Source: Candidatus Iainarchaeum sp.
GTDB lineage: Archaea > Iainarchaeota > Iainarchaeia > Iainarchaeales > JAZDDZ01
NCBI GenBank assembly: GCA_043809245.1
Contig: JAZDDZ010000053.1
Location: 1-27,076, forward strand
Length of the DNA: 27,076 bases
Direction of reading: 5' to 3'
A program made the position numbers and the translations under genes. Each line of letters starts with the position of its first letter. The stretch's first letter is position 1. The notes under the pieces were generated by a model, which saw nothing but the letters and a program-made list of their open reading frames with translations, had not been told where the DNA came from and made no database searches. Positions 3,550 through 22,276 of the stretch are shown piece after piece.

Positions 3550-4443
3550 ATGAATGTTTACCAGCAAATATCCTCGAATAAAACAAAGTCAATCCTATTG
3601 TTTTCCTTTTTCTTTCTAGCCATTCTTTTCCTTGGATGGGTTATCGGGGAAATCACGGGCTTTGGCGCAGGGGCGCTTGTAATTGCGTTCATTCTCGCGG
3701 TCCTTCTTTCCTTTTTCTCCTATTATTATTCCGACAGCATTGTCCTCAAGATTTCCCGGGCAAGGGAAGTTAAACGCGAGGAATTCCCTTTCTTGTTTGA
3801 CATTGTTCAGGCAGTTGCAATGGGTGCAGGGGTTCCGAAACCACGCCTTTACGTGATAAATGACACTGCCCCAAACGCTTTTGCAACTGGAAGAAACCCA
3901 CAGCACTCGGTTATCTGCGTTACAACCGGCTTGCTTCAAAAACTTGACCGCAACGAATTGGAGGCAGTCATTGCCCACGAAATGTCGCACATTAAAAACT
4001 ATGACATGCTTGTAATGACAGTCTCCGTGGTGCTTGTCGGCGTAATTGTCTTATTGAGCGACTTTATTTTGAGAAGCTTTCTTTGGGGAAGGCGAGGCGG
4101 CAACAGCAGGGAAAGCGGCAGCCTTGGGCTTGTTTTGATAGCCATAGGCATTCTTTTTGCGGTTCTTTCTCCATTCATTGCAACAATCATTCGCCTGGCG
4201 ATTTCACGCAAAAGGGAGTTTTTGGCTGACGCTGACTCCGCCTTGATGACGCATAACCCTGAAGCGCTTGCCTCGGCTCTTTTAAAAATCTCCAATGACA
4301 AGGAGCCATTGGAGGCAGCAAACAAGGCAACCGCGCACCTTTACATCATCAACCCCCTTAAAGAACACGCCAGCTTTATGAACAATTTGTTCAGCACACA
4401 CCCCCCAATTGAGGCAAGGGTGAAGGCGTTAAGGGGAATGTAA
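3550..4443 (+). CDS. htpX: HtpX (M48) membrane zinc metalloprotease
   Basis: PNAFATG, AHEMSH (HEXXH), SRKREFLAD and FSTHPP motifs. Confidence 0.95.
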   Translation: MNVYQQISSNKTKSILLFSFFFLAILFLGWVIGEITGFGAGALVIAFILAVLLSFFSYYYSDSIVLKISRAREVKREEFPFLFDIVQAVAMGAGVPKPRLYVINDTAPNAFATGRNPQHSVICVTTGLLQKLDRNELEAVIAHEMSHIKNYDMLVMTVSVVLVGVIVLLSDFILRSFLWGRRGGNSRESGSLGLVLIAIGILFAVLSPFIATIIRLAISRKREFLADADSALMTHNPEALASALLKISNDKEPLEAANKATAHLYIINPLKEHASFMNNLFSTHPPIEARVKALRGM

Positions 4444-4471: not shown

Positions 4472-5305
4472 ATGCAGGGCGCACTTTTCTCCGAATTGAA
4501 CAATCAGATGGTCAAATACCATTTCAAGCCCTCGCATAAATTCGCGCAGAACTTCATTGTGAATGAAAAGCTGCTGCAGGAAATCGTCAGCGCCGCGCAG
4601 TTAACCAAAAAGGATAGGGTGCTTGAAATCGGCGCTGGAACCGGCTTTCTCACGCGCGAGCTTTTGAAGCACGCGGGAAAAATTATTGCGGTTGAAAAAG
4701 ACGCTTTGCTTTGCGGTTTGCTTGAAGAGGAATTCAAGGGCGAAAAAAAACTTGAAATCATTAAGGGAAATTTTTTGTTTGAAAAGCTGCCGGAATTCAA
4801 CAAAGTTGTCTCCCTCCCGCCTTATTCAATTTCCTCCGGCATCATGCTTCGCTTGTTCGAGCTTGGCTTTGAAAAAGCAGTTCTTGTTTTCCAGCGTGAA
4901 TTCGTTGAAAAATTGGTTGCAGAGCCGGGTTTTGTGGAATACAACGCGTTATCCGTCCTGACAACTTACTTCACTGAACAGAAAATCCTGGAGAAAAGCA
5001 TTTCCCCTAACTCTTTCTATCCAAAGCCGAATTCTTTTTCATCGCTTGTTGTGCTTGACGCAAAAAAAAGGTTCGGCTCAGTTAACGATGAATTGTTTGC
5101 GGATTTTTTGAAGCAATTGTTCCGCCTGAAGAACAAGAACCTTTCAAAGGCCTTGGCGAAATGCTTTCCTTTTTGGAAAAAAAACCTGAAAATCGGAAAA
5201 GAAGAGTTCCTTGAAACAGCCAATTCGCTTGAACTGGCAAAGGAAAAGGTCAACAGGCTTGAATGCAGAGAATTCCTTGAGGTCTTTAAACAAATTCTTC
5301 AATGA
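4472..5305 (+). CDS. rsmA: 16S rRNA adenine dimethyltransferase RsmA/KsgA (atypical motif IV)
   Basis: QNF, VLEIGAGTGFLT, AVEKD, FQREF and FYPKP motifs; synteny with DUF655. Confidence 0.9.
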   Translation: MQGALFSELNNQMVKYHFKPSHKFAQNFIVNEKLLQEIVSAAQLTKKDRVLEIGAGTGFLTRELLKHAGKIIAVEKDALLCGLLEEEFKGEKKLEIIKGNFLFEKLPEFNKVVSLPPYSISSGIMLRLFELGFEKAVLVFQREFVEKLVAEPGFVEYNALSVLTTYFTEQKILEKSISPNSFYPKPNSFSSLVVLDAKKRFGSVNDELFADFLKQLFRLKNKNLSKALAKCFPFWKKNLKIGKEEFLETANSLELAKEKVNRLECREFLEVFKQILQ

Positions 5306-6833
5306 TTACTTCCTCAAAGTCAATTACCCTTGATTTGAGCGCCTGTTTTTCCGCCAAATCAAGCTTTCTGGTGTTCTCAGAGTAAATCTCGTAAAGTATC
5401 TGGCCTTCCCTGATGCTTTCCCCTGCAAGCACCTTTAAGAGAACGCCCGCGCGCTTGTCAGCGGGAGCCCCGGAAAGGCGCGCGATTTCAATTACTTTTT
5501 TGACGTTTATTTTCTTTATTTCGCCCGCGCTTTTTGCCTTTACTTCCTTTTTGAACCTGGCAAGCCTAACGTCCTCGGAGCGCAGAATCTTTCCGTCCTG
5601 TGCCTTGATTATTTCCTTCATTTTTTCAAGAGCCATTCCCGAGGTCAGGATTTCTTTTGCCAGCCTGTGGCCTTCACCTTTCTTTGACCTGCCGACAAGC
5701 TCGAATAATGCGCCCGCAAGCCCGCAGCTTTTTTCCGCAAGCGCGTTCCATTTTTTTCCCTCAAGCGTCTCCATTACCTCTTTTGCCTCAAGCGCTGGCC
5801 CGAAAGCCATTCCAACAGGCTCGTCGCCGTCAGTCAAAACCGCTTCAACCTTTATGCCGACTCTTTTGCCGACTTCAATGAAGTCCCGGGCCATTTCCTC
5901 GGCGGTTTCCCTTGACTTTATTTTTACCTCAGGCCCCACAGGCAAATCAATCACCAAAAACTTTGCGCCAACCGAAGCCTTTTTTGACATCACTGACGCT
6001 ATAACCTGGCCTTTTGGGTCCAGTGAAAGCGGGTGCTCGAGCTTTATCATTTTGTCATCCACTGGCGCTAGGTCAACTGCGCCGCCCCAGCTTATCACTC
6101 CTCCAACCTTGTTTGTTATGTCCCTTATCCTTTCAAGTGAAAGGGAAACGTTTGCAAGCACTTCCATTGAATCAGCGGTTCCAGCAGCGCTTGTAATGCT
6201 CCTGCTTGAAGTTTTGGGTATGAGGTAGCCTGCGGCGGCAATTATCGGCACAACAATCATTGTAGTCCTTCCATTTGTTCCGCCAACAGAATGCTTGTCT
6301 AAAATGAATTCCTTTTCAAACTTCAACTGCCTTCCATCGGCTATAAGCGCGTTTGTCATTGCCACTATTTCCTCCAAGTCAAAGCCATTGATGTAAACGG
6401 ATGACATGAACGCGGAAGCCTCAATGTCGCTTAGCCTGTCGTTTGCAATGTCGTCAACTATTGCCTTTAATTCCCCGGCGGTTAATTTCTGCTTGTCCAT
6501 TTTTTTCTTAATGAATGCAACGCTTTCCGGCCTTTCAACCGCTTTGACCTCAACTTCCTGGCCGTTTTTGACTGCAAGAATTTTTTGCGCTTCCTCAAAC
6601 AAGCCGACCTCGTTTTCCTCAACCATTGAAGTTGTTAGGTCAACTACAACAACCAATGCCTTCCCTGTTTTCTGGTTTCTCACCTGAACCCTTTCAAGCG
6701 CAAAAATCCCAAGCTCTTTTGCGTCAATCTCGTTCATTAAAGCGATTAGCTTGCCTGAATAAATGTTGAAGGTTTTTACCTTCATCTGCTGCGAATAACT
6801 CGAAGTGCTATCCCCATTATCCATAAAAACCAT
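5286..6833 (-). CDS. deoA: AMP phosphorylase (archaeal NMP phosphorylase, thymidine phosphorylase family)
   Basis: DKHSVGG, PKTSSRSITSAAGTADSMEVLA, WGGAVDLAPVDD and ASVMSKK motifs, plus the N-terminal extension typical of AMP phosphorylase. Start uncertain (6833, 6824 or 6785). Confidence 0.92.
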   Translation of the reverse strand: MVFMDNGDSTSSYSQQMKVKTFNIYSGKLIALMNEIDAKELGIFALERVQVRNQKTGKALVVVVDLTTSMVEENEVGLFEEAQKILAVKNGQEVEVKAVERPESVAFIKKKMDKQKLTAGELKAIVDDIANDRLSDIEASAFMSSVYINGFDLEEIVAMTNALIADGRQLKFEKEFILDKHSVGGTNGRTTMIVVPIIAAAGYLIPKTSSRSITSAAGTADSMEVLANVSLSLERIRDITNKVGGVISWGGAVDLAPVDDKMIKLEHPLSLDPKGQVIASVMSKKASVGAKFLVIDLPVGPEVKIKSRETAEEMARDFIEVGKRVGIKVEAVLTDGDEPVGMAFGPALEAKEVMETLEGKKWNALAEKSCGLAGALFELVGRSKKGEGHRLAKEILTSGMALEKMKEIIKAQDGKILRSEDVRLARFKKEVKAKSAGEIKKINVKKVIEIARLSGAPADKRAGVLLKVLAGESIREGQILYEIYSENTRKLDLAEKQALKSRVIDFEEVIIEEFV

Positions 6834-13444: not shown

Positions 13445-13828
13445 TCATTTTTTTTCTAAAGCATTTCTTATCTCTTCTGCATCCCCTAATCTTCCCATTT
13501 CCCTCAGCTTGATGTACAAAGTGCCTGCGTTGCTTACATCACCTGCCCAAGCATATGCGATGCCTGCGGATTTTCTGTCACCCTTTTTTACAAGCCTTTC
13601 CGCATACTCAAGAAGCTTTGCAGTATCGTTTAATTTATCTGCAATTTCCGAAGCAGTTTTAAGGTCGCCATTTTTTTCGGCGGCATTCATTGATTCAATC
13701 AGCTGGTTTTTTTTCCTAGCCATTAAAGCCCGTTTTTCAATCGCAGGCCCAATAGGTTCAATTGTGCCCCAGCGTCTTCTTATCCTTGGCTTACTCTGCC
13801 TGGGCTTGAACTGAATCATGTGCGCCAT
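13445..13828 (-). CDS. Orphan protein with basic N-terminus and TPR-like helical repeats
   Basis: 127-aa ORF with repeated GD..A...(Y) units (KNGDLKTA, KKGDRKSAGIAY, AGDVSNAGTLY). Confidence 0.65.
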   Translation of the reverse strand: MAHMIQFKPRQSKPRIRRRWGTIEPIGPAIEKRALMARKKNQLIESMNAAEKNGDLKTASEIADKLNDTAKLLEYAERLVKKGDRKSAGIAYAWAGDVSNAGTLYIKLREMGRLGDAEEIRNALEKK

Positions 13829-13831
13829 AAA

Positions 13832-13909
13832 TTATCTTTTCCTTTTCCAAATCCCTTTCTCCGTGACAATCACCTTCACGTTTTTCGCTTTGCCGTTGAT
13901 TGTTTTCAT
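13832..13909 (-). pseudogene. Collapsed remnant of the R15P isomerase gene (internal segment fused in frame to the 3' end)
   Basis: MKTINGKAKNVKVIVTEKGIWKRKR*. 13880-13908 matches 15554-15582 at 28/29 nt; 13832-13888 matches 14933-14989 at 48/57 nt; the two are joined at the shared AKN codons. Confidence 0.9.
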
Positions 13910-14868
13910 TTCAGGTACTTCAGGTAAACCGCGAAAAAGTTGCGGTATGTTTTCTTGTATTTTTCAAGGAAAAACCTTTCAAGGTTTTTGGTATAGCCGC
14001 GGTGGAAGTCCTCAAGGCACTTGATGTAGGAATCGCGCTGTGTTTTCCTGATTATCAGCAGGGGATATCCGTTTCGCAGTAAAATCAGGTTGGAAATTAA
14101 CCTGCCTACTCTTCCGTTGCCGTCCTCAAAGGGATGAATCCTTTCAAACTTTCCGTGGAAAAGCGATGCGACCTGCAGCGGGTGCATTTCTTCAATGCTT
14201 TTGTCATGCCATTCAATCAGTTCCTTCATTTCTTTCTGCACTTTTTCGGGTGGCGTGAGCTTTACGCTGCTGCCCGTAATGTAGTTTGGCAGGGCTTTAT
14301 ACCCGGCCCTCACATCAATGTTTTCCATCAAAAGCCTGTGCATTTTAATAATGTCATTTTCTTTTATGCTGAACTTTTTTTTAAGCAATAAATCCATTAC
14401 TTTCCTGCTGTTCCTTGTCTCGTAAATTTCCCTTAAATCTTTTCCCTCAATCGTTCTCTTTTCAAACATCACTATTGCAACGTCTTTCAGTGTCAGGCTG
14501 TTGCCCTCAATTGCGTTGGATTCATAGGTGAAATTTGCAGTAAACCTGTCGAACACATCGCGCCACTGCTCTTTGGAGAATTTCTTAACAGTATGCTGGT
14601 AGTCAACCTTTATTTCCTCAATCTTCCTCATTTCTTCTTCGCTGAAAATTTGGCTCTTTGCAAATTTTTTTAATGCAAAACCCGTGAAAGCCTCCTTTTC
14701 TTTTTGGCTGAAAAAATCCGCGTGCTCCCTTTCAAGCGCCTTCAAGCCTCCGCGCTTGCCTTTAACAAGTTTCTGAAGGGTCTTAACGCTTCCATCAGGT
14801 AGCCTTATGGATTTAGTCAGGTAAAGGTACTTCTTCCCGTGGATTAACTTTTCCTTCAAATAAGCCAT
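13906..14868 (-). CDS. Fic-domain AMPylase (class II, N-terminal inhibitory motif)
   Basis: Complete HPFEDGNGRVGR motif; inhibitory SNAIEGN helix upstream. Confidence 0.93.
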   Translation of the reverse strand: MAYLKEKLIHGKKYLYLTKSIRLPDGSVKTLQKLVKGKRGGLKALEREHADFFSQKEKEAFTGFALKKFAKSQIFSEEEMRKIEEIKVDYQHTVKKFSKEQWRDVFDRFTANFTYESNAIEGNSLTLKDVAIVMFEKRTIEGKDLREIYETRNSRKVMDLLLKKKFSIKENDIIKMHRLLMENIDVRAGYKALPNYITGSSVKLTPPEKVQKEMKELIEWHDKSIEEMHPLQVASLFHGKFERIHPFEDGNGRVGRLISNLILLRNGYPLLIIRKTQRDSYIKCLEDFHRGYTKNLERFFLEKYKKTYRNFFAVYLKYLK

Positions 14869-14881
14869 AAAAAAATTTAGA

Positions 14882-14914
14882 CCTACAAATATTTAAACAT
14901 ATTGTTTTTGTAGG
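14882..14914 (-). promoter_or_regulatory. Fic promoter: TTTAAATA box flanked by inverted repeat CCTACAAA/TTTGTAGG
   Basis: 8-bp arms at 14882-14889 and 14907-14914; TATA at 14890-14897, about 22 nt from the ATG. Confidence 0.6.
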
Positions 14915-14932
14915 GGTAAGAAGTTTTGTGCA

Positions 14933-15820
14933 CTATCTCTTTCCTCTCCAAACGCCCTTCTCCGTGACAATCGCCTTCACGTTTTTCGCGGGAGTTTCGT
15001 CAAACGCGGGATTCCTGATTGAAAGTTTCGGCAGTTTTTTTTCCCACACTTCTTTCACACCGCGTTCCTCAATAGGCTCCTTTCCCTTGGAAGTCAGCGG
15101 GTCGATTTTGTGGGTGGAAGCAAGGACAATGTGCGGCACTCCAAAGTTTTTTGCGGCGAGTGAAATCTGCGCTGTTCCGATTTTATTCAGCACGCCGCCT
15201 TTCACTGTGACTGCATCAGCGCCGGTGATGAACAAATCGCAGCGCGGGAGAAAAGAATATGCCGCGGAGTCAACTACAAGCGTTGCCTTGATTCCCTCTG
15301 CGCTCAAATCCTTCGCGGTTTTATGCCCCTGCATTAAAGGCCTTGTTTCCGTGCAGTAAACCTCTGCTAATTTTCCTTTTTTTTTCGCGAGCTTTAACGC
15401 TTCAATCACTGAATGCGAATGGCAGTGCGTGAAGGCAACCGCTTTTTTCGGGAAAAACCGCAAGGCGTTTTTTGCAATGCGCTCCATTGCCTTTTTTCTT
15501 TCATTTGAGAAATTATTGCATGCTTTTGCGATTTGCCCGCCCAATTCCTTCAAGTTTTTGGCTTTGCCGTTGATTGTTTTCAGCAAAACCTTTGCAGCTG
15601 CCCTTGCCTCTGGTTCTGTGGGGCGCGCGTTCGCCAGGAGAAGAACTGCTTCTCTTAATTCTTTTCTGAACTTTTTCAGGTTTTTTTCCGCGCTGTGCTC
15701 CGCGATTGTTTTTGTGGTTGAAAGCAGTGCCTCTGTTACCTTTGAAGCGCCCTGAATCTTAAGGCTTTTTATGCCTGAAACTGTTTTTCTGAGCAATTTT
15801 TTTGCGGCAATTTGCTTCAT
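14933..15820 (-). CDS. e2b2: Ribose-1,5-bisphosphate isomerase (eIF-2B alpha/beta/delta family)
   Basis: IQGA, RPTEP, THCHS (catalytic Cys), ETRP, GADAV (catalytic Asp), NKIGT and NPAFDETP motifs; same block as AMP phosphorylase. Confidence 0.88.
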   Translation of the reverse strand: MKQIAAKKLLRKTVSGIKSLKIQGASKVTEALLSTTKTIAEHSAEKNLKKFRKELREAVLLLANARPTEPEARAAAKVLLKTINGKAKNLKELGGQIAKACNNFSNERKKAMERIAKNALRFFPKKAVAFTHCHSHSVIEALKLAKKKGKLAEVYCTETRPLMQGHKTAKDLSAEGIKATLVVDSAAYSFLPRCDLFITGADAVTVKGGVLNKIGTAQISLAAKNFGVPHIVLASTHKIDPLTSKGKEPIEERGVKEVWEKKLPKLSIRNPAFDETPAKNVKAIVTEKGVWRGKR

Positions 15821-15961: not shown

Positions 15962-17095
15962 GTGAAAACTGTTGTTGACAAGGCCATTAGAAGGGCTACT
16001 CTTGAGGGCTTGAACCCAAAGGGAGTCCAGAGAAAGAAACGAAACGATGAAGACGAGGACTTGGAAAAGCTTCTTGAGGAGGCACAGGCTCGGATTAAGG
16101 TTATTGGAGTCGGTGGAGGCGGAGGCAACACAATCCAGCGCATGAGTGAAATCGGCATAATTGGCGCTGAAACCTTTGCAGTCAACACTGATGCACAAGA
16201 CCTCTTAAGCATTGACGCTGACAGAAAGATTTTGATTGGAAAAAAATTAACACGCGGCTTGGGGGCAGGCTCTGACCCCGCGGTTGGAGAAGCAGCTGCA
16301 AGGGAAAGCCTTGACGAATTGAAATCCATTTTTGAGGGAACTGATTTGATTTTCATCACATGCGGCTTGGGCGGAGGCACTGGAACAGGCGCTGCACCCG
16401 CGCTCGCGGAAATCGGAAAAGAATTAAAGGCCTTGACTGTCGCGGTTGTCACTCTTCCATTCACTGTTGAGGGAAGAAAGAGAATGGAGAACGCAATGGA
16501 CGGCCTTGCGAAAATGAAGCAATACGCTGACACGATTATTGTGATTCCAAACGACAAGATTCTTGAGATAGCGCCCGACCTTCCGGTGAACGCGGCGTTC
16601 AAGGTTGCGGATGAAGTTTTAACTAATGCGGTCAAGGGAATTACGGAACTCGTAACCAAACCTGGCTTGATTAACCTTGACTTCGCGGACTTAAGGACTG
16701 TTTTAAAGAAAGGCGGAGCCGCAATGATTGGCTTGGGTGAAAGCAAAGCCGAGAGGGCTTCCGAGAGCAGGGCACTTGAAGCAGTTGAAAACGCCTTAAC
16801 CAGCCCTTTGCTGGACGTTGACATTTCAGGCGCAGGAAAAGCGCTTGTAAACGTTGTTGGGGGCACGGACATGACTTTGCGTGAAGCGGAAATGATTGTT
16901 GAAGCGGTTTCCACAAAAATCCACCCCAACGCGCACATCATTTGGGGCGCAATGATTGACGAAAACATTTCCCGCAACCAAATTCAGGCAATGGTTGTCA
17001 TTGCAGGGGGAAAATTCCCTTACCTTGAAGGCAAAAAATCAGCTGAAGCCGCACTAAAAGACGGCACGCTTGACTTGGGAATAGAGTTCACGTGA
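15962..17095 (+). CDS. ftsZ: Cell division protein FtsZ (FtsZ1-type context)
   Basis: GVGGGGGN, NTDAQDL, GLGGGTGTG, PGLINLDFAD; upstream of secE-spt5. Confidence 0.97.
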   Translation: MKTVVDKAIRRATLEGLNPKGVQRKKRNDEDEDLEKLLEEAQARIKVIGVGGGGGNTIQRMSEIGIIGAETFAVNTDAQDLLSIDADRKILIGKKLTRGLGAGSDPAVGEAAARESLDELKSIFEGTDLIFITCGLGGGTGTGAAPALAEIGKELKALTVAVVTLPFTVEGRKRMENAMDGLAKMKQYADTIIVIPNDKILEIAPDLPVNAAFKVADEVLTNAVKGITELVTKPGLINLDFADLRTVLKKGGAAMIGLGESKAERASESRALEAVENALTSPLLDVDISGAGKALVNVVGGTDMTLREAEMIVEAVSTKIHPNAHIIWGAMIDENISRNQIQAMVVIAGGKFPYLEGKKSAEAALKDGTLDLGIEFT

Positions 17096-19880: not shown

Positions 19881-19883
19881 ACG

Positions 19884-20132
19884 CTATTTGTAGATATTTT
19901 TTCTGTGCCCGATTTTAATGATTAATATAATCAATTTTCCCCTATCGATTTCTGCGAGGATTCTGTAATCGCCAACCCGCAACTTGTAGGCGGTTTCCCC
20001 CACAAGCCGTTCAAAATAGTTTTCGGGCCTTATTCTGGCGCGTTCTATCACGGCAATGATTCTCTCTTGCAAAGGTTTCTCAAGCTTTTTTAGCTCCCGC
20101 GAAGCCTTGCCTGAAAAAATTACTTCAAACAT
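19884..20132 (-). CDS. relE: RelE/ParE-family toxin
   Basis: YKLRVGDYRIL...IGHRKNIY motif. Confidence 0.92.
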   Translation of the reverse strand: MFEVIFSGKASRELKKLEKPLQERIIAVIERARIRPENYFERLVGETAYKLRVGDYRILAEIDRGKLIILIIKIGHRKNIYK

Positions 20133-20351
20133 TTACAAACCGAGCTCTTTTTTTACCTGTGCCAAGGTCTTGAAGTTGCCTTCGCGGATTTCCTTTCTTG
20201 CCTCTTCAAGGTCTCTTTTGGTTTCATCGGAAAGCTCTTTTGTGTCTTCCAGCAAATCCCAGATTATGCTTTCATAGCTTTCCTTACTGCTTAATTTCCT
20301 TGCGGAAAGCTCTTTCCTTAATTCATGGCTGACTTGAATTGTTGTTTCCAT
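20133..20351 (-). CDS. Antitoxin partner of RelE (RHH-like N-terminus)
   Basis: METTIQVS...ESYESIIWDLLE...EARKEIREG..KTL.QVKKELGL; abuts relE; start at 20351 fits the TATA spacing. Confidence 0.85.
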   Translation of the reverse strand: METTIQVSHELRKELSARKLSSKESYESIIWDLLEDTKELSDETKRDLEEARKEIREGNFKTLAQVKKELGL

Positions 20352-20359
20352 AGTAATAA

Positions 20360-20388
20360 TATAGCCCGCTATACTATAAAAACCTTGC
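20360..20388 (-). promoter_or_regulatory. relBE promoter (TTTTTATA) with operator-like palindrome TATAGC-CC-GCTATA
   Basis: TATA at 20375-20382; palindrome at 20360-20373 between the TATA box and the ATG. Confidence 0.6.
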
Positions 20389-20401
20389 GTTTGACTAAAA
20401 A

Positions 20402-20446
20402 AAGCTGAAAAGCACTTAAGGGAAATACGATTCGGTTCTGGGCTGA
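20402..20446 (+). pseudogene. Collapsed remnant of rpl11 (internal segment fused in frame to a recoded 3' end)
   Basis: Reads KLKST*GKYDSVLG*. 20402-20416 matches 19752-19766 at 14/15 nt; 20420-20446 matches 19854-19880 at 21/27 nt, and all six differences are silent. Confidence 0.9.
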
Positions 20447-20461
20447 GAACCCCGGTAAACT

Positions 20462-20916
20462 TTATTTTTCTCTTTTTTGTGAAGCAATAATTTTTTTCCA
20501 GTCCTGCCAAATTATTTCAATGTCACGAAAAGCACTTATAATGCGCTGGACAGCTAGTTGATGCGCATCGGGGTTAGTTGAGGCCCTTTCAAAATTGCCT
20601 GCGTATTTTTCTGAGAAAATCTGCCCGGTTTCTTCCATGAAAGACCTGAAAATTTTTTGTGCAGAAGAATGCAACTTGGCAATTTGTTCAGGGCTTTTTT
20701 TTCCTAGCATAATTCGCTCAAAAATCCGCTCAAAGGTATTGACAATTCGCGGGGGCTTTTGTAAATGCTTTTTCAGAACTGCAATTTGCTCGTTTAATGG
20801 TCTTGCAAGAAATGAATCAGCGTAGTTCTCTTTATGCTTTGAAAAATTTGCCTCATACGAATCTAGCCTTGCCTGGGGAATTATCCTTCTCTCTCTCTCT
20901 TTGGGGGTTCAGGCAT
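20462..20916 (-). pseudogene. Orphan gene frameshifted in an (AG)6 tract
   Basis: ATG 20916 gives MPEPPKREREG*. Removing one AG unit (tract 20888-20900) yields a 150-aa ORF MPEPPKRERRIIPQARLDSYE... continuous with the 20462-20710 ORF. Confidence 0.65.
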
Positions 20917-20998
20917 ACAATCGGATAGAGAATGGCATAAAACAGTATTTATTGATTTTGGCTGATTCATTGGTTAAGATTCTGTTTTTTTGCCCGCA

Positions 20999-21011
20999 GA
21001 AACTTTAAATA
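20999..21011 (+). promoter_or_regulatory. BRE-TATA promoter GAAAC-TTTAAATA of the MNT gene
   Basis: Near-consensus archaeal TATA box about 35 nt before ATG 21046, with an AGGTGG RBS in between. Confidence 0.55.
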
Positions 21012-21045
21012 ACGCTACAGCCATACAATTTATAGGTGGAATTAA

Positions 21046-21360
21046 ATGAAGCACGGCTTAACGCCTAACACAATTATCGGGGAACTTGAAAGCCGAAAAG
21101 AAGAGTTAGCAGTATATGGAGTCAAGCGCATTGGCTTGTTCGGATCTTTTTTGAAGGGCAGCGGCAGGAAGGAAAGTGACTTGGACTTTCTTGTTTTATT
21201 TGATGCTTCTACTTTCGATAAGTACTTTGAACTTAAATTCTTGCTTGAAAAATTGTTTCACAGGAAAGTCGATTTGGTTCTTGAAGACAGCCTTAAGCCG
21301 GCTGTTGAATACGTGAAAAAAGAGGCTCTTTATGCCAAGGCAAATTTTATATCAGCTTAA
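21046..21360 (+). CDS. Minimal nucleotidyltransferase (MNT, MntA-type antitoxin)
   Basis: IGLFGSF...ESDLDFLV...RKVDLV motifs (GS-x10-DxD, third D). Confidence 0.92.
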   Translation: MKHGLTPNTIIGELESRKEELAVYGVKRIGLFGSFLKGSGRKESDLDFLVLFDASTFDKYFELKFLLEKLFHRKVDLVLEDSLKPAVEYVKKEALYAKANFISA

Positions 21361-21398
21361 CTGATCTGTGGCTTTGAGGAAATAGGGGTGTGTTTTCA

Positions 21399-22001
21399 AT
21401 GGCTGATGCTAATTTTCCGGTTGTTGATATTTCGGTATTGAAATTATCTGATGTAACTATTTGTTTTTCACTTAATTTTGATTGTGGCTTGAAGGACTTG
21501 AATGATTTTCTTGCTGAAGACGCGTTAAGGCAACAAAAGGAATCTGTGAACGTTACATTTCTATGGGTTTCAAGGAAAACCCGAGAATTGCTCGGCTACA
21601 TCACGTTATGCAATGATTCAATTCATTTATTTGGAGAGAAAAAAGAGGAAATGAAAACAATCGGCATTTCTTACAAGGCACTCCCCGCATTGAAGGTTTG
21701 CAGGATGGCAGTCAGCAACAAGTTTGCGGGCAGGGGGCTTGGGACTAAAATGATTGCTTTTGCTGTAAAAGTTGTTTTGGAAATCAATGAAATGTCGGGC
21801 TGTAGGTTTTTGACTTTGGAGGCTAAAAACGATGAAACGCTGCCTGAAAAAAAGAAGCCGGTGCATTTTTACAAAAAACTCGGTTTTTCTTTGCTAAAAG
21901 AAAGAAAGCAGAACGCATCTTATTTTCCAATGTACAAAGACCTTAAACCATTGATTAATGAATTCATTGGGCTTGAAGCGAAAAAAGCCTTTGGTTCTTA
22001 G
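21399..22001 (+). CDS. GNAT acetyltransferase (TacT/AtaT toxin-like)
   Basis: FDCG..DLNDFL, GYITL, PALKVCRMAV, acetyl-CoA loop GRGLG, FYKKLGF. Confidence 0.88.
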   Translation: MADANFPVVDISVLKLSDVTICFSLNFDCGLKDLNDFLAEDALRQQKESVNVTFLWVSRKTRELLGYITLCNDSIHLFGEKKEEMKTIGISYKALPALKVCRMAVSNKFAGRGLGTKMIAFAVKVVLEINEMSGCRFLTLEAKNDETLPEKKKPVHFYKKLGFSLLKERKQNASYFPMYKDLKPLINEFIGLEAKKAFGS

Positions 22002-22128
22002 CAATAACCCCTAAAATGAGGCGGTCTGTTTTGCCTGGCTTCGCTGAATCGTTTTTTTTCATTTTCTCCAAAAAAGCCATGGCTTCTTTGCCGACAAGCG
22101 TTGGGGTTGCCCTGATTGGTTTCGCCAT
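21964..22128 (-). CDS. 54-aa protein convergent with the GNAT gene, putative antitoxin (absent from the ORF track)
   Basis: MAKPIRATPTLVGKEAMAFLEKMKKNDSAKPGKTDRLILGVIAKNQRLFSLQAQ*; TTTTTAAA box upstream; overlaps the GNAT 3' end by 38 nt. Confidence 0.7.
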   Translation of the reverse strand: MAKPIRATPTLVGKEAMAFLEKMKKNDSAKPGKTDRLILGVIAKNQRLFSLQAQ

Positions 22129-22276
22129 AAAAACACTTTCCTAAACAATATTTTTCTTCTAACTCTTTAAAAAGGGCATCCCTTTTAAAACCTTTAGTGA
22201 AAGGAGAATTATATAGGATTTAACCGGTTTTTAACCGTGTGTACTAACCCCTTTGGGTGTTAGGAGGTCTTTGAAA

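Follow-up and report, generated by a model that had tools for sequence, protein, structure and literature searches.

A 25-codon open reading frame lying between a Fic gene and its downstream neighbor in a Candidatus Iainarchaeum genome is very probably an insertion scar of some kind, and the explanation that we favor, at a probability of roughly 0.55, is a homology-assisted insertion that set two alleles of an isomerase gene side by side. The anatomy of the frame, the recurrence of its pattern at other loci, and a third-codon-position bias in the differences between the repeat copies were observed directly. What is new here is that these differences are mostly synonymous and allele-like; the small frame, for its part, is a scar of the ordinary sort.

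Anatomy of the small frame

The features around the small frame (mini-ORF) in the window, that is, the whole 27,076-nt stretch of DNA that was analyzed, are as follows:

5286–6833: AMP-phosphorylase-type gene
13445–13828, minus strand: orf127, 127 codons, the next ORF after the mini-ORF; pyr genes follow
13832–13909, minus strand: mini-ORF, 25 codons or 78 nt, reading MKTINGKAKNVKVIVTEKGIWKRKR and a stop
13832–13888, minus strand: remnant piece 2, the right direct-repeat copy, with its stop at the same codon as in the live gene
13873–13909, minus strand: remnant piece 1 with the ATG; 22 nt equal to the live gene, then the 16-nt junction repeat
13906–14868, minus strand: Fic gene, 320 aa, full to its native C-terminus (PF02661, E 3e-20)
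14869–14932, minus strand: 64-nt spacer with the Fic cassette's own promoter, an inverted repeat
14933–14989, minus strand: left (live) direct-repeat copy, the last 18 codons and stop of the isomerase gene, including the downstream 16-nt repeat (14974–14989)
14933–15820, minus strand: live ribose-1,5-bisphosphate isomerase gene, 295 aa (PF01008, E 2e-62; IF-2B family)
15547–15582, minus strand: live-gene site matching piece 1, containing the upstream 16-nt repeat copy (15547–15562)
15962–17095, plus strand: ftsZ, divergent to the isomerase gene

As the sequence-only reading had proposed, the mini-ORF is an in-frame mini-copy of the isomerase gene in two pieces. Piece 1 matches the live gene at 28 of 29 nt (13880–13908 versus 15554–15582), extending to 34 of 36 (13873–13908 versus 15547–15582), and piece 2 does so at 48 of 57 nt without gaps (13832–13888 versus 14933–14989), a direct-repeat pair that self-BLAST of the genome returned at 85.7% over 56 nt. 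In 100 dinucleotide-shuffled versions of the window, neither 36-nt probe had a second site, with up to three mismatches allowed. The direct repeat is made of 57 nt of target coding sequence and is, therefore, longer than 30 bp. The mini-ORF retains only 25 of the 295 isomerase residues; the family HMM aligns over just ~26 C-terminal positions (5.9 bits), and the full catalytic PF01008 fold is absent from it.

The two pieces meet in the motif GC[C/G]AAAAAC[T/G]TGAAGG, of which the live gene has two copies in one codon phase, GCCAAAAACTTGAAGG (15547–15562) and GCGAAAAACGTGAAGG (14974–14989), separated by 573 nt or 191 codons. These copies are identical at 14 of 16 positions and both encode A-K-N-x-K. 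The remnant changes from the first to the second repeat context within this 16-nt motif, which confirms the earlier claim that about 570 nt are skipped at a shared GC.AAAAAC. Since both repeats stand in the same codon phase, recombination or mis-annealing between them is in frame. The two copies of the direct repeat do not differ over 16 nt at their 5′ edge, and the same block is the microhomology of the internal joint.

The ATG of the mini-ORF (13909–13907), said before to overlap the Fic TGA (13908–13906), indeed consists of the last A of the final AAA codon of Fic and the TG of its stop, and its TAA (13834–13832) lies 3 nt before the ATG of orf127 (13828). The Fic C-terminus, ...VYLKYLK*, is native for its family; isomerase-derived sequence thus starts exactly at the Fic stop and shares at least the TGA with it. 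The idea that the last codons of Fic themselves resemble the isomerase gene was dropped because this C-terminus is native. At the other end, the stop and the 3-nt gap to orf127 are those of the native isomerase gene end. Consequently, selection is unnecessary to account for the frame, the start overlap, or the stop adjacency, as all of them follow from the construction of the scar.

The live isomerase is short at its C-terminus: all 20 aligned homologues extend beyond it, 19 of them by ~25 aa or more. The remnant has its stop at the same codon as the live copy, and neither has the tail of these homologues, which indicates that the truncation predates the insertion event. The family HMM runs 7 residues past the isomerase stop with low confidence, which is not significant, and the first residues of orf127 (FMAHM..) align weakly, again not significantly, to the missing tail; orf127 may have displaced that tail in an older event.

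The junction, for which spanning reads had been called for, is crossed by a separate sequence: a 228-nt contig of a public groundwater run, possibly related to the source sample, covers 13788–14015 with 3 differences and bridges Fic, the mini-ORF, and the next gene. Only one sequencing run contained even a small share (0.10) of the window's words, and no RNA run was among those listed. The run contigs, which cover patches only, contained no other joint or alternative form of the locus. At position 13879, a low-depth contig (depth 2) of run X1 has A for C on the plus strand. This changes a GTG codon of the remnant to TTG, the base found at the upstream 16-nt repeat copy of the live gene, and may be a strain variant or an error.

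The name ribose-1,5-bisphosphate isomerase fits, given the AMP phosphorylase in the window and a RuBisCO large-subunit gene elsewhere in the genome. Among 19 loci of relatives (flanks up to 1.5 kb), the isomerase gene is beside ftsZ in 17 and beside Fic or orf127 in none; it adjoins AMP phosphorylase in 3 of 19. Its closest homologues among 5.8 billion protein clusters are at most 54% identical, the best identity in 40 genomes of relatives is 51%, and a metagenome scan found a single isomerase locus, at 37%. No other member of the genome's family was found among the genomes searched, and these relatives yielded neither an empty site nor a donor allele for the isomerase locus. With regard to mosaicism, no break in GC or GC3 was detected within the live gene, and the identities of its N- and C-parts to 119 homologues were uncorrelated and uninformative on this point, the closest of these being only up to 54% identical.

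Elsewhere in the window, the genes for the ribosomal proteins L11 (19407–19880) and L1 (22253–23101) are separated by ~2.4 kb (19881–22252) with a 125-aa ORF and two further genes, one for a minimal nucleotidyltransferase (PF01909) and one for a GNAT acetyltransferase. This stretch is probably another accessory insert; the self-comparison showed no repeat flanking it.

Fic cassettes and their flanking repeats

The insert between the two repeat copies is 1,044 nt long and holds only Fic and its promoter. A palindrome begins 13 nt past the isomerase stop, with arms TTACCCCTACAAA (14907–14919) and TTTGTAGGTCTAA (14877–14889) around TTTAAATA (14890–14897), ~25 nt before the Fic ATG. Across loci, conservation begins at a palindrome, TTACCCCTACAAA ... 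TTTGTAGGGGTAA, around a TATA-like box and reaches as far as the Fic stop codon. The arms match at 9 or more of 10 positions in 23 of 30 Fic loci, a count that the shuffle control does not discriminate, the sequence being AT-rich. Upstream of Fic in L028–L056, the arms change on both sides across loci; both vary together between lineages (TTAACCTTAC, TTAACCCCAC, TTAACGTTAC and others). From its sequence, the palindrome looks like an operator for autoregulation. The Fic protein itself carries HPFEDGNGRVGR, with SNAIEG upstream, which fit the catalytic and internal inhibitory-helix motifs of self-inhibited Fic AMPylases.

Fic homologues 70–76% identical to this one, 319–322 aa long and ending in ...VYLKY[ILV]K, occur in other families and phyla-level groups. 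The distribution of the gene is patchy: at a cutoff of E 1e-60, hits came from 41 of the 196 genomes of the order, and none of the 29 other Fic loci fetched has the window's neighboring genes. The Fic gene, therefore, looks transferred: it is 70–76% identical across families compared with at most 54% for the isomerase, it is patchy, and its neighbors are never those of the window. No integrase or transposase family was found among the window's ORFs scanned with Pfam.

We then compared up to 1.5 kb upstream of Fic with the same length downstream, counting direct repeats at E < 1e-3. Such repeats (15–55 nt, 86–100% identical) flank Fic in 9 of the 28 other loci with enough flanking sequence, compared with 0 of 17 isomerase loci of relatives that served as the control (Fisher p = 0.008). 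At 7 of the 28 loci, both copies are close to the cassette, the left one no more than 160 nt from the Fic ATG and the right one no more than 100 nt from its stop. The repeat sequence is different at every locus, which indicates that it is derived from the target. In one pair of genomes of the same genus, the repeat is double around Fic in one and single in the other, which lacks this Fic; other genes occupy the spot in the latter, so that it does not qualify as a clean empty site. Around another Fic locus, a DNA search at genus level gave only short matches, the genomes being too diverged.

In one further genome (L067), an 82-nt repeat occurs three times (4021–4102, 5494–5575, and 6670–6751 of contig C16 of G035) and brackets, in series, a Fic gene and an AAA_14/DUF4143 ATPase gene. 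This repeat has a hairpin and a T-run, and a convergent Trm5-type gene runs at its 3′ end into the last copy. At 4 of 22 scanned loci, a tRNA gene ends 52–65 nt ahead of the Fic ATG, the tRNA being Leu in L029 and L030, Cys in L039, and Ser in L052. At L039, 14 nt from the end of the tRNA appear again 875 nt past the Fic stop, a weak match (E 0.004).

The same architecture recurs within the genome of the window. Self-comparison of its 1.48 Mb gave 80 local direct-repeat hits, and of 19 pairs picked by hand, about 10 bracket one or two accessory genes (contigs C8, C10, C22, C29, and C47 of G000; L070–L079). The cargo comprises Fic with a 90-aa ORF; a 3.4-kb segment with a Fic paralogue, between copies of a 45-nt tRNA 3′ half; two AAA_14 (AAA_14/DUF4143) ATPases; two pairs of a nucleotidyltransferase and a gene of unknown function; a PIN_2 gene; a Schlafen/AlbA_2 gene; and a methyltransferase. 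These cassette repeats are 40–133 nt long and often consist of the 3′ end of a housekeeping gene. They are 80–93% identical, with none perfect among ~12 pairs examined.

Codon positions and rival explanations

Are the copies of such a repeat a gene end and its decayed duplicate, or two alleles? In a post hoc test on hand-picked repeat pairs of this one genome, we compared live ends with remnants for four Pfam-verified genes, encoding the isomerase, the acetolactate synthase small subunit, the primase large subunit, and a SIMPL protein. The differences at codon positions 1, 2, and 3 numbered 5, 4, and 22, so that 22 of 31 fell at third positions (p = 2e-5 versus uniform; p = 0.002 versus ~0.44, the expectation from our own rough model of a neutrally decaying copy beside a constrained one, i.e., in-situ duplication). 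The addition of two ORFs that Pfam did not verify resulted in 33 of 57 (p = 1e-4 versus uniform; p = 0.024 versus 0.44), and a third such locus, where either of two frames could apply, was excluded. The remnant peptides are near-identical to the live ones: QKFGVKEVSRTGINAMQRN stands against QKFGVKEISRTGINAMQRN with 8 nucleotide changes, and ATLRSHGIACANC is the same despite 3. In the acetolactate synthase case, Ser and Arg codons switched families between the copies. The signal of the window alone is weaker than at the other loci (5 of 9 differences at third positions, p = 0.14; 4 amino acid changes in 18 codons), and at the two positions with a family consensus, the live copy has the consensus and the remnant does not. 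In a non-coding repeat at another Fic locus (L032), the differences were evenly spread (2/3/2); an upstream "ORF" there was dropped as protein-coding, being non-protein-like.

These counts are most simply read as divergence that accumulated for the most part in separate lineages, where each copy was still a functional gene end. The third-position bias makes the copies look like alleles from two lineages, one of which would have arrived with the cassette. Furthermore, piece 1 has 0 differences in 22 nt compared with 9 in 41 for piece 2 (Fisher p = 0.015), and this lower divergence of piece 1 fits a live gene whose 3′ part arrived together with Fic. The small frame had been read earlier as the displaced original 3′ half of the gene. 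That a remnant of the isomerase 3′ part lies beyond Fic holds; that it is the displaced original and not a fresh copy gains indirect support from the codon bias and the uneven divergence of the two pieces.

Several other explanations must be weighed against a two-allele insertion. Fic might have entered at a staggered break or through template switching during replication, with the target of 57 nt (or ~650 nt) copied in situ and the far copy decaying neutrally. The microhomologies at both internal joints agree with this, templated fillers being typical of break or template-switch repair, as does the fact that the window's own 5 of 9 differences are not significantly codon-biased. The class of insertions with long target duplication likewise has repeats of 46–423 bp and no mobility genes (PMC2853133). 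However, the pooled bias of 22 of 31 exceeds the expectation for one neutrally decaying copy, not one of ~12 repeat pairs is 100% identical (80–93%), and the remnants keep near-identical peptides even across the codon-family switches in acetolactate synthase, so that we regard in-situ duplication as unlikely. Integrative elements that enter the 3′ ends of genes, such as tRNA-targeting islands and phage 21 and e14 in icd, bring a replacement end with them; like the present locus, they leave the live gene intact and a diverged copy of its end beyond the insert. A larger recombinase-bearing element with such a replacement end could have entered the isomerase 3′ end and decayed by deletions until only Fic was left. 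The repeat starts on its 5′ side with 16 identical nt, which resemble an att core, Fic cassettes directly follow tRNA genes at 4 of 22 loci, and the 45-nt tRNA 3′ half in this genome brackets 3.4 kb including the Fic paralogue. Against such a decayed element, no recombinase family was found in the window's ORFs scanned, the insert is a single gene, both copies hug a 1-kb cassette at 7 of 28 loci, and repeated decay to exactly that unit is improbable; in addition, the repeat differs at every locus, which no single att specificity fits. We consider this origin very unlikely. The boundary repeat does not suit an integron gene cassette either, being isomerase coding sequence that differs by locus and not an element-borne attC. 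As the window is a metagenome-assembled contig, an assembly artefact or chance resemblance has to be mentioned, but the copies, at only 84–94% identity, are too different to be collapsed or chimeric repeats, a separate 228-nt contig crosses both joints, and a second match was absent from all 100 shuffles; it is hardly credible.

Could the small frame be selected as a translational relay, as had also been suggested? Ribosomes would pass from the Fic TGA to the overlapping ATG, stop 3 nt before orf127, and restart there, so that orf127 would keep its former coupling to the isomerase gene. The ATGA overlap (13906–13909) and the TAA, 3-nt gap, and ATG (13826–13834) suit such a role, 4-nt overlaps are common at gene junctions of the window, and the frame is open in the variant 228-nt contig, judging by the listed differences. 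The other internal genes of the window have GGTG-type motifs 5–10 nt before their starts, whereas orf127 has only a weak purine run, and the 16S 3′ end that would define the anti-Shine–Dalgarno sequence was not found in the assembly. Between Fic and orf127 there is no TATA-like box and no run of five or more T, which suggests that orf127 is probably read from upstream transcripts. Hand-over of ribosomes to orf127 through the small frame is thus conceivable from the sequence. On the other hand, two repeats in the same phase, an ATG taken from the AAATGA of Fic, and the native stop and gap produce this arrangement automatically, with a prior chance of about 1 in 3 that the frame would match. The mini-ORF lacks a Shine–Dalgarno-like motif, the RNA fold of the remnant is unremarkable (z −0.55), and orf127 is an ORFan and only a putative gene: it has no Pfam family, matched only itself and two repeat proteins among 1.84 billion representatives, and was absent from the surroundings of Fic at all 29 other loci. 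Originally it was probably the gene that followed the isomerase gene. A selected relay is, in our judgment, a distinctly improbable explanation; the small frame would merely preserve the native upstream context of orf127 and would have no selected role.

Proposed history and known insertion systems

A two-allele insertion would have proceeded as follows. In the ancestral state, the isomerase gene would have stood directly before orf127, with the 3-nt gap. DNA arriving from a diverged relative would have carried an isomerase 3′ part followed by the Fic cassette, i.e., the palindromic promoter and the ORF. On the left side, homologous recombination would have taken place inside the isomerase gene, at some point beyond nucleotide 267; on the right, where Fic ends with its stop codon, the incoming DNA would have been joined illegitimately through microhomology (TGA, possibly TGAAA) to nucleotide 239 of the resident isomerase gene. 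The resident 3′ part of ~650 nt would thereby have been shifted to the far side of Fic, where a later 573-nt deletion between the 16-nt repeats (14/16) would have cut it to 78 nt. The result would be a live gene that is resident at the piece 1 site and foreign at its end and a remnant that is resident throughout. The order of these events is our inference, and it is from topology only that we identify the resident copy. In one variant, a circle with the cassette and a short copy of the gene end would have integrated by a single homologous crossover. Alternatively, piece 1 would be filler sequence copied from a template as the ends were joined, and the duplication would then be only 57 nt long. 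The model presupposes a donor in which Fic was already behind the same gene, and it leaves that first insertion unexplained.

By its layout, the locus appears to fit insertion with long target duplication, a known kind of scar that was described by Nobusato et al. (2000), as cited in Furuta, Abe, and Kobayashi (2010; PMC2853133). The two have in common a short insert without a mobility gene and a target repeat of more than 30 bp, of varying length, over the 3′ end of a gene. An insert below 20 kb without mobility genes belongs to the definition given there, and the present one is 1,044 nt; two of the three defining features are found here, the third being a related genome with the empty site, where a single copy aligns with both repeats. 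In that paper, the cargo is restriction-modification genes, the repeats are mostly 93–100% identical, and no archaeal case survived the screen (PMC2853133). In contrast, the cargo here is Fic, the host is a DPANN archaeon, and the repeats are only 84% identical. The far copy here also has a second piece, joined by microhomology. For restriction-modification units, a cycle of release and reinvasion is proposed there (PMC2853133), comparable with our circle variant. A limited search of the literature on archaeal integrons, DPANN Fic with direct repeats, and long target duplication found no description of this Fic cassette.

The nearest mechanistic relative is homology-facilitated illegitimate recombination, reported for transformable bacteria by de Vries and Wackernagel (2002) and others (via PMC6382021). 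It too combines one homologous anchor with one illegitimate joint at 3–10 bp of microhomology, and it is reported only in bacteria, during natural transformation (PMC6382021). The live gene resulting from such a process would be a mosaic, and part of the resident sequence could stay in place; at the present locus, the illegitimate side would have given a duplication instead of a deletion. We know of no report of this process in DPANN archaea.

Tentatively, and at somewhat less than even odds, we extend this reading to the accessory genes of DPANN archaea in general. Fic genes, DUF4143 ATPases, and toxin–antitoxin pairs would spread without a recombinase of their own, a copy of the 3′ end of a neighboring housekeeping gene traveling with each cassette as a portable homology arm; in a diverged relative, host recombination would place the cassette behind that gene and displace the resident end. 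The 25-codon frame would then be the displaced allele, and the mostly synonymous differences would be the signature of the cycle. For annotators, short ORFs at such insertion sites would be by-products. If a wider survey were to bear this out, "long target duplication" would amount to two alleles juxtaposed by homology-assisted gene gain, and reduced archaeal genomes would have an integrase-free route for taking up defense-type genes that leaves the target genes unbroken.
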